This document shows, one piece after another, positions 34,359 to 35,798 of a stretch of DNA of 64,000 nucleotides. The first letter of the stretch is position 1. Each line of letters opens with the position of its first letter. Location of the stretch: assembly GCA_951406725.2 (NCBI GenBank), contig OX597815.1:47244001-47308000 (forward strand), read 5' to 3'. Source of the stretch: Octopus vulgaris (Eukaryota). Under the pieces are notes generated by a model, which was not told where the DNA came from, did no database searches, and saw nothing but the letters and a program-made list of their open reading frames with translations. A program made the position numbers and the translations under genes.

Positions 34359-35289
34359 GTAGCACTCTCTTGTAGCTATGATCACATTGTTGGAGCTAAC
34401 TCATGCTCTTTGCTGCCGATTCTCATTACAGTCAAGATGTCAACTTCATTCAAACTTTCGTTGCTTACTGCGGTAATACTCTTGCTCCAGTCTTAAAATT
34501 TATTTTTGTGTTATTCTGATTATCTCTTTGGTCATTCTGATTACATCCATGGTGCTAACTCTCGTTATAGTCTCTATATTATGCTATCTTCTTGTTTCTT
34601 ACTGTCTTTGCATTTTATGCTAACTCTGATCACCCAGTTGCGGGCATCCTCGCTTGCTTTAGCATTACTAACACTGATCTCTCTATAACTCGCAGCGATT
34701 CATTTTAATACCCATTTGTCGTTGTTGCTGCGGTCTTATTTATTTATTTTTTATTTCTTTATTGAATTATAGTACTAATACGTTCTTTAAATTTTGAAGT
34801 TACTTCCTTTACTGGGAATCCCAAATTGAAGGGAAAACTTGAGTATGAAAAAATCTATAAGTCCGTATATATCTCTACTAAACACTGAAGGTACTGGATA
34901 ACTTTTTGTGCATATTTCCATGTATGTATGTATGTATGTATGTATGTATGTATGTATGTATAAATGTATGTGTATTTTTCAATGTGTAAAAATAACACGG
35001 AAAAAATAAATAGTTACCAGGGTAACAAATATTCACATAAGTGCGAAGGATGTTACAGCCTACATATAAAGGTAGAAATGCCAGGGTTTAGAGAAATATT
35101 TTTGATTAACATAGTTAAATTAAGAAATGGAGTTAAACGCAGGTGTTATTCAAATCTGTATACTTCCGACATATGTTTCGAAGAAAACATTGGTATTATT
35201 CCCTAGGGAATAAACTGATGTAAAACAATGTAAGGGAAAAAAGAGAAATAAAACACATCAATAAGCTATTTTTACCGAATGTGATTACC

Positions 35290-35522
35290 TATTTCTTTAT
35301 TACCCACAAGGGGCTGAACATAGAGGGGACAAACATGGACAGACATAGGTATTAAGTCGATTATATCGACCCCAGTGCTTAACTGGTACTTAATTTATCG
35401 ACCCCGAAAGGATGAAAGGCAAAGTCGACCTCGGCGGAATTTGAACTCACAACGTAACGGCAGACGAAATACCGCTAAGCATTTCGCCCGACGTGCTAAC
35501 GATTCTGCTAGCTCGCCGCCTT
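35290..35522 (-). mobile_element. Full-length family C SINE, 3' half of the tRNA-SINE chimera
   Basis: Minus: AAGGCGGCGAGCTAGCAG...AGCCCCTTGTGGGTAATAAAGAAATA. Confidence 0.9.
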
Positions 35523-35538
35523 AAAAAATACCCCTTTG

Positions 35539-35611
35539 AGGTTCCAGCGAGTTTCGAACTCACGACCTTCTGCGTGTTAAGCAGATGTGATAACCACTAC
35601 ACCATGGAACC
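35539..35611 (-). tRNA. tRNA-Val: tRNA-Val, anticodon AAC, probably a retrocopy
   Basis: GGTTCCATGGTGTAGTGGTTATCACATCTGCTT-AAC-ACGCAGAAGGTCGTGAGTTCGAAACTCGCTGGAACC-T folds as a full 73-nt cloverleaf; T6 tract follows about 10 nt downstream. Confidence 0.9.
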
Positions 35612-35737
35612 ATGGAACCAGCTGCTACACCATGGAACCACCATGGAACCAGGTAATCACCGAATGTGATTACCGCGTATATAATGAAGGGAACGTTGGC
35701 AAGTTATTTTTAAAAAAACCGTTAATAGATTTAACAT

Positions 35738-35798
<61 letters not shown>

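Follow-up and report, generated by a model that had tools for sequence, protein, structure and literature searches.

Single-event insertion of a tRNA-Val precursor copy and a young SINE in the octopus genome, with related pre-tRNA/SINE joins

A complete tRNA-Val copy and a full-length young SINE entered an older repeat of the Octopus vulgaris genome as one insertion. The insert was found in a stretch of 64 kb, which is referred to here as the window. It is traceable to one parent tRNA gene, whose leader and trailer were both on the template; the tRNA part is joined to the SINE at the first nucleotide (+1) of the latter, and joins of this kind recur across tRNA genes of the same genome. Such an insert was probably made by one retrotransposition, in which the reverse transcriptase (RT) of a LINE copied the full SINE RNA and then jumped end-to-end onto the oligo-U of a pre-tRNA-Val.

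Results

Architecture of the insert

In the 64-kb window there are just two copies of the 16-mer ACCGAATGTGATTACC, whereas the mean expected by chance for a 16-mer with at most two mismatches is 0.01. The two copies enclose an insert of 369 bp. On the minus strand the order is target-site duplication (TSD), GATTACCT, GGTTCCATGGT, GGTTCCATGGTGTAG, CAGCT, GGTTCCAT, tRNA-Val(AAC), a trailer with a T6 run, SINE, and TSD. The parts are as follows.

35659..35674, minus strand: 5' TSD, 16 bp, starting with GGTA in the element orientation, which is the target preference of the SINE family
35651..35658, minus strand: fold-back copy of the target, GATTACCT, the last 2 nt of which also equal leader positions -2 to -1 of the parent gene
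35640..35650, minus strand: short copy of tRNA +1 to +11, GGTTCCATGGT, parsed against the parent gene, with a 2-nt microhomology (TG) to the next segment
35625..35639, minus strand: short copy of tRNA +1 to +15, GGTTCCATGGTGTAG, with a 3-nt microhomology (TAG) with leader positions -8 to -6
35612..35624, minus strand: leader -5 to -1, CAGCT (35624-35620), and tRNA +1 to +8, GGTTCCAT (35619-35612), with a 4-nt microhomology (TGGT) to the full tRNA copy
35539..35611, minus strand: complete tRNA-Val(AAC) without CCA (ARAGORN; Rfam RF00005, 62.2 bits)
35523..35538, minus strand: copy of the parent's 3' trailer with a terminal T6 (35523-35528), against T8 in the parent, and with one C/G difference
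35290..35522, minus strand: full-length young SINE, 233 nt, without poly(A), the last ~42 nt being common to a LINE of the Tx1/L1 group
35274..35289, minus strand: 3' TSD, 16 bp, the second copy of the 16-mer
35120..35745 (approximate), no strand given: older dispersed host repeat split by the insert, with paralogues at 85-89% identity

The sequence-only reading of this DNA had placed the TSDs, the fold-back, the three short copies, the tRNA, the T6 trailer and the SINE correctly; CAGCT, which is the 5' leader of the parent gene, was absent from its list. The tRNA-Val body in the insert is identical to that of the parent and of many cluster genes. The SINE begins with AAGG, as do ordinary copies, and is therefore full length; its tail ends in AATAAAGAAATA, and ordinary copies have this same end, also lacking poly(A). 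It is 100% identical to many dispersed copies, which indicates that the insertion is very young.

A single insertion event

Paralogues of the host repeat were used as the empty-site test. All 19 that were fetched carry a single 16-mer-like site, and 13 of them run straight from the 16-mer into the right flank of the window, while the other six diverge at the site or soon after. Therefore, the 369 bp between the two 16-mers arrived together, and the tRNA and the SINE represent a single event. This is what the sequence-only reading had proposed, and it is borne out both by the TSD, which encloses both parts, and by the one 16-mer of the paralogues. Two paralogues (L251 and L257) switch to an inverted copy right at the 16-mer. 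Contigs from four public runs were also compared with the left flank and the SINE tail; none of the pieces listed spanned the site, and the flank is a repeat.

The parent tRNA-Val gene

The trailer pattern occurs at two places genome-wide, namely the window and a parent gene on another contig (L002, G000:C25:19905073, with the match at G000:C25:19905136). The leader TAGCAGCT is found in one of the 55 distinct Val genes examined, and this is the same gene that bears the trailer. The terminator is T8 in the parent and T6 in the window copy, and the single C/G difference between the copied trailer and that of the assembled parent may be an allele, an RT error or a mutation.

The pre-tRNA had been described in the sequence-only reading as 5'-processed. 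This is not supported, because the scar contains the parent leader, (TAG)CAGCT, of the trailer-bearing gene. The presence of the leader within the scar indicates an unprocessed pre-tRNA as the template, and the RNA would have carried both the leader and the trailer of one gene. The ends of the copy are transcript ends: the U-run ends inside the parent T8, and the leader extends to -5 or -8. DNA-level copying of the parent gene was rejected on account of this coincidence. The parent is solitary within its 3-kb locus, has a body identical to that of the cluster genes, and is evidently transcribed.

A few bases after the parent T8, in the same orientation, lies the decayed head of another SINE family (L002:1582-1650), with a score of 49 against a mean of 14 and a maximum of 29 in 2,000 shuffles. 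This offers a lead that the parent gene may itself be an old chimera, with the decayed SINE head behind its T8.

Val genes with the AAC, CAC and TAC anticodons (L002-L030, L152) have one common body sequence, and the discriminator is T in 53 of the 55 Val genes. In tRNA-Val the discriminator is usually A.

The 5' scar

When the leader is included, each junction in the scar has a microhomology on a single template (CT, TG, TAG and TGGT). The sequence-only reading had invoked multiple template jumps between RNAs, which are not needed, because slippage on one leader-bearing template covers all the junctions. Moreover, similar scars occur in plain young SINE copies: four of 29 (three of them independent) carry short copies of their own 5' end, and one plain young copy repeats target sequence. 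Scars of this kind are thus not peculiar to the tRNA/SINE chimera. All three short copies in the insert start at mature +1, and jumps between transcripts of one gene, some 5'-processed and others not, would fit them as well.

The fold-back and the TSD form a 9-bp hairpin with a 5-nt loop (DNA fold -8.1 kcal/mol), which ends at the TSD boundary. This is as expected from a single-stranded target end priming on itself, and a cDNA looping back onto its own start explains the fold-back equally well. Snap-back junctions are known from engineered R2 insertions, as described in the available part of PMC11371274.

tRNA/SINE joins across the genome

Two patterns were searched for genome-wide. The first (B-box, gap, TTT and SINE start) matched 41 places, and the second (a stricter B-box, without the T filter) matched 35, while the reversed patterns, serving as controls, gave no matches. 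The union comprises 63 places, of which 62 are distinct, and 45 of the 62 are tRNA-derived joins as judged by ARAGORN, BLAST to other tRNAs, Rfam or, for one of them, inspection by eye. Among them are Val, Asp, Glu, Thr, Lys, Ser, Phe, Ala, Gln, His, Arg and Leu tRNAs. A search for further fusions of tRNA and trailer to SINE, as suggested in the sequence-only reading, has therefore yielded at least 45 joins of many isotypes. The 17 matches left out of the tRNA count are mostly chance or SINE B-box matches, and include two uncertain tRNA fragments (L075 and L083) and a 96-nt RNA (L064). The census covers the sense orientation, and both patterns required the SINE start, so that a preference of the joins for +1 is not to be read from it.

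A non-simple exact TSD of at least 9 bp surrounds tRNA plus SINE in 14 of the 38 full-tail chimeras, against none around the SINE alone (0/38), with a null rate of 0.024 per locus; 20 of the 38 are without an exact TSD of this length, and four lie in simple repeats. In the set obtained without the T filter, a trailer with a T-run ends at most 4 nt from the SINE in 30 of 35 cases, CCA is present in two, and three are non-tRNA or unclear. The donor U-run varies from T2 to T8 among the joins, and many have 1-3 extra nt between the U-run and the SINE. An insertion at the usual intron position is kept in two Lys copies (L072 and L126; by eye). In a second parent/copy pair (L152/L151), 5 nt of leader match the end of the TSD.

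The exact 13-nt SINE start occurs 43,648 times in the genome and stands in 36 of the chimeras, or about 0.08%, which is a lower bound. The number of adjacencies expected by chance is about 0.5, if 2,000 tRNA genes are assumed.

A tRNA-first search gave 12 dispersed copies of one Glu trailer, joined to at least four SINE families and differing in their joins and 5' ends. Most are joined at or near SINE 5' ends, and some at internal points of other families; no parent gene was found among the 12. No repeated trailer/junction was found among the 45 chimeras, or among the 12 Glu copies.

U6 RNA behaves similarly. About 22 of the best 30 of 48 U6 matches directly precede SINE sequence of several families (by eye), three of them with the family of the window. 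Five of the U6 matches (L216-L220, among L208-L237) form a tandem array of U6 variants. In another SINE family, the joins with U6 and with pre-tRNA-Glu fall almost at one internal position, just past a short stretch that resembles a hairpin (L208, L222-L224, L233, L139, L141 and L145), which suggests a pause or cleavage site at this recurrent point.

Single loci show further features. The trailer of L149 is ~75 nt long and continues through a T4 run to the SINE; in L145, trailer and a piece of SINE are present as an inverted fold-back copy; and L074 has a TSD of 92 bp. An unannotated RNA of ~96 nt, whose ends pair, which contains motifs resembling A and B boxes and which terminates in T4, has five dispersed copies (L064/L238 and L239-L242). 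Four of the five are joined to the start of the SINE family of the window, one of the five has an A-rich tail between direct repeats, and the L064 copy (G000:C1:166998950) has a 17-bp TSD. No Rfam family matched this RNA (L064/L239) at the E-value thresholds used, and none of the five copies is a clear parent gene. In architecture it is reminiscent of vault RNA.

The SINE family and its probable partner LINE

GGTA follows the SINE in 25 of 29 young copies, as it does in the window. A tail-only search of the fetched loci gave a LINE that matches the SINE tail over its last ~42 nt. The ORF2 of this LINE contains Pfam RVT_1 and zf-RVT; its best solved structure in PDB is human L1 ORF2p (E 7.5e-20), compared with 2.7e-9 for R2. 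Homologues of the ORF2 carry an AP-endonuclease domain (PF03372), and one is named 'Transposon TX1'. One LINE locus (L203) shows zinc-knuckle and endonuclease-like frames by eye. It is thus likely, as far as such homology can tell, that a LINE of the Tx1/L1 group drives the SINE. GGATG stands behind 12 of 20 copies of the tail-sharing LINE (by eye), in contrast to GGTA for the SINE, and this LINE should therefore be regarded as a relative of the true partner. The L1-type machinery named in the sequence-only reading is supported in a broad sense, in that a Tx1/L1-like LINE has the tail of the SINE.

In several of the LINE copies (L203, L185-L201), the GGATG site lies within the coding region of another non-LTR element, presumably, from its motifs, of the restriction-like-endonuclease type. 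The top RVT_1 matches were also considered as partners and rejected, none of the best 30 of 150 scored loci having the SINE tail. Among the RVT_1 matches is a very young LINE family (e.g. L160-L182) with a (TTA)n tail and many long open frames, in which a length of 949 aa recurs. From their motifs, this family is taken to be CR1-like and the other RVT_1 loci RTE-like.

Tx1 elements typically show target preference, according to the available part of PMC4494074, and an octopus is reported to have recently active L1-Tx1 families (PMC13282606, in the main text of which the term 'chimer' is absent). The SINE family was not identified from the passages of PMC4824008 consulted.

Discussion

Mechanism and alternatives

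In the proposed retrotransposition, the target would be nicked at the GGTA site. The RT would finish the copy of the SINE RNA and add a few non-templated nucleotides to the cDNA, and these might clamp onto the U-run of a nascent pre-tRNA, from which copying would continue to about -8 of the leader. During 5'-junction repair, carried out perhaps by the RT or by a Pol theta-like repair polymerase, the growing end would realign three times on the same template (through TGGT, TAG and TG), and the single-stranded target end would snap back on itself and then join through CT. Template jumping by the R2 RT requires non-templated addition (PMC8857657, in the part available), and the extra 1-3 nt at many joins are expected from such addition. 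The product is a tRNA gene of perfect sequence that retains its own terminator and lies upstream of a SINE with an independent promoter, and the pair is predicted not to travel as a dimer. Twin priming was rejected, because the tRNA is in the sense orientation. The proposal of the sequence-only reading that a pre-tRNA with trailer and oligo-U was joined to a full SINE, and its kinship with chimeras of the U6/L1 type, are upheld.

Alternatively, the pre-tRNA and the SINE RNA may have been ligated first by an RtcB-type reaction and the fused RNA then retrotransposed, which is unlikely although it deserves the most serious attention among the alternatives. Pre-tRNAs meet the tRNA ligase complex in the nucleus, U6/SINE chimeras are common in the octopus genome, the recurrent internal join point in some other SINE families could be a cleavage site, and RNA ends can be remodelled. 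On the other hand, the donor at the joins is a U-run of variable length (T2-T8) and the acceptor is SINE +1, often with the extra nucleotides in between. A primary Pol III RNA has a 3' U-OH end, and a SINE RNA has a 5' triphosphate. The substrates of RtcB ligation are a 2',3'-cyclic phosphate on one RNA and a 5'-OH on the other, and the two RNAs would match neither; in the available part of PMC6789731, where ligation is demonstrated for U6/L1 in human, a donor with a 3'-OH or an acceptor with a 5' triphosphate greatly reduced it. Less probable still is that the LINE RT copied the SINE only and a Pol theta-like polymerase patched the 5' junction from the pre-tRNA, thereby making both the tRNA and the scars. 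Theta-mediated joining typically shows snap-back and repeated realignment at microhomologies, and in engineered R2 insertions snap-back and U6 'extra template' junctions occur together (PMC11371274, in the part available). However, the tRNA/SINE join itself (T6 followed by AAGG) is without microhomology, and in all 30 trailer cases copying started from the 3' U-run of the RNA, a pattern that agrees better with an end-to-end jump than with internal annealing. From sequence alone, one cannot tell a jump of the RT from ligation of RNAs with remodelled ends, or the RT from a repair polymerase.

The remaining two explanations have very little probability. One of them is that a tRNA transcript extending into an adjoining SINE was retroposed, the read-through option of the sequence-only reading, or else that the SINE was inserted behind a resident tRNA gene. 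SINEs are dense around tRNA genes, and the parent does have a same-family SINE downstream. This SINE, however, the nearest of its family, lies 282 nt past the parent without its first 8 nt, and its identity is 90.7%, whereas the window SINE matches the young subfamily at 100%; no SINE of the window family was found directly behind the parent T8. Moreover, the TSD spans both parts, the host-repeat paralogues have neither, and none of the 38 chimeras has a TSD of at least 9 bp around the SINE alone. The other is that the locus founded, or belongs to, a new family of dimeric tRNA-SINEs. RNA-gene heads added to SINE 5' ends are documented (PMC4494074, in the part available), and read-through is conceivable in the 18 of 45 chimeras without a T4 run. 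Against this stand the one genomic copy, the T6 terminator between the parts and the unrepeated junctions (45 chimeras and 12 Glu copies); in addition, RNase Z would presumably cleave the RNA of a dimer 3' to the tRNA.

Proposed roles in SINE birth and tRNA gene birth

The sequence-only reading had regarded the locus as a plausible birth step for new SINEs. The copy is single, a T6 run separates its parts, and no trailer/junction occurs twice among the 45 chimeras, so that on present evidence the locus is a dead end in this respect, a by-product and not a new SINE. None of the 18 chimeras without a T4 run has been seen amplified.

The tRNA is intact according to ARAGORN in 23 of the 45 chimeras, and T4 or more follows in 16 of these. 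Because the promoters of tRNA genes are internal and the terminator is copied, some chimeras may be new functional tRNA genes. It is conceivable, though doubtful, that SINE retrotransposition is a working route by which tRNA genes arise and spread, with about one such event in every 1,000 SINE insertions, and that the parent gene is an ancient active chimera. If so, captured precursors with terminators would plant complete Pol III transcription units at new sites.

It is still argued whether chimeras form by template jumping of the RT or by RtcB ligation, and U6 cannot settle the debate because its cyclic-phosphate end permits both routes. Pre-tRNA/SINE joins at +1 would be poor RtcB substrates, and a genome with dozens of them thus provides a natural test set. 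The strong excess of precursor ends over CCA ends (30 versus 2) suggests that reverse transcription takes place in the nucleus, close to Pol III transcripts as they are made. The chimeric copies are also an archive of the leaders, trailers and introns of single tRNA genes, and of an unannotated Pol III-like RNA.

Comparison with known systems

None of the literature consulted treats sense pre-tRNA/SINE chimeras as a class, although supplementary locus tables may list cases. LINE machinery is known to copy tRNAs. Tailless and pre-tRNA retropseudogenes were reportedly described by Schmitz et al. in 2004. In the available parts of two later papers, pre-tRNA retropseudogenes are mentioned (PMC4476161) and tailless tRNA copies are covered (PMC2912911). 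The likeness lies in the copying of tRNAs, including precursors, by LINE machinery, which implies nuclear recruitment. The tailless copies are 3'-truncated and primed directly at the target, whereas the window tRNA is 3'-complete with its trailer and was the second template, after the SINE.

Human tRNA/LINE-1 chimeras likewise have a tRNA and a retroelement inside one TSD; as far as the available text goes, they comprise 21 loci, mostly with antisense tRNA halves and ascribed to twin priming (bioRxiv 10.1101/2025.02.02.635956). In contrast, the octopus chimeras are sense, 3'-complete precursors, many of them full length, as is the tRNA of the window.

Experiments on R2 (PMC8857657 and PMC11371274, in part) show an end-to-end jump after full-length cDNA and fold-back synthesis at the 5' junction. 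They are engineered or in vitro, and U6 is nearly the sole extra template in the text available. The octopus events, by comparison, are natural and germline, involve pre-tRNAs, and likely depend, to judge from the ORF2 homology, on an enzyme of the L1/Tx1 group. The crocodilian SINEU and its partner Tx1-Mar (PMC4494074, in part) resemble the octopus case in the Tx1-group machinery, the target preference and the small-RNA 5' heads acquired by template switch; the SINEU heads were amplified into families, while no amplification of the octopus chimeras has been seen.

The closest likeness is to the U6/L1, U6/L2 and U6/Mon-1 chimeras (Group IV in PMC4476161, the last from the platypus), in which, according to the part available, a U-tailed Pol III RNA lies 5' to a same-sense retroelement and one TSD surrounds both, SINE partners of stringent LINEs being included. 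The features of small-RNA/non-LTR chimeras are all present in the octopus insert: an enclosing TSD, a 5' RNA that has the orientation of the retroelement and an intact U-run 3' end, and a LINE-recognised tail. It differs in that an unprocessed pre-tRNA, still bearing its leader and trailer, serves as the 5' partner, drawn in the class as a whole from many genes, that the SINE is joined at its +1, and that the tRNA copy keeps its internal promoter and terminator, which a U6 copy does not. Since the 5' partner is a pre-tRNA, and not U6 or another snRNA, the octopus chimera is best regarded as a variant of the U6 chimeras rather than as a member of them.
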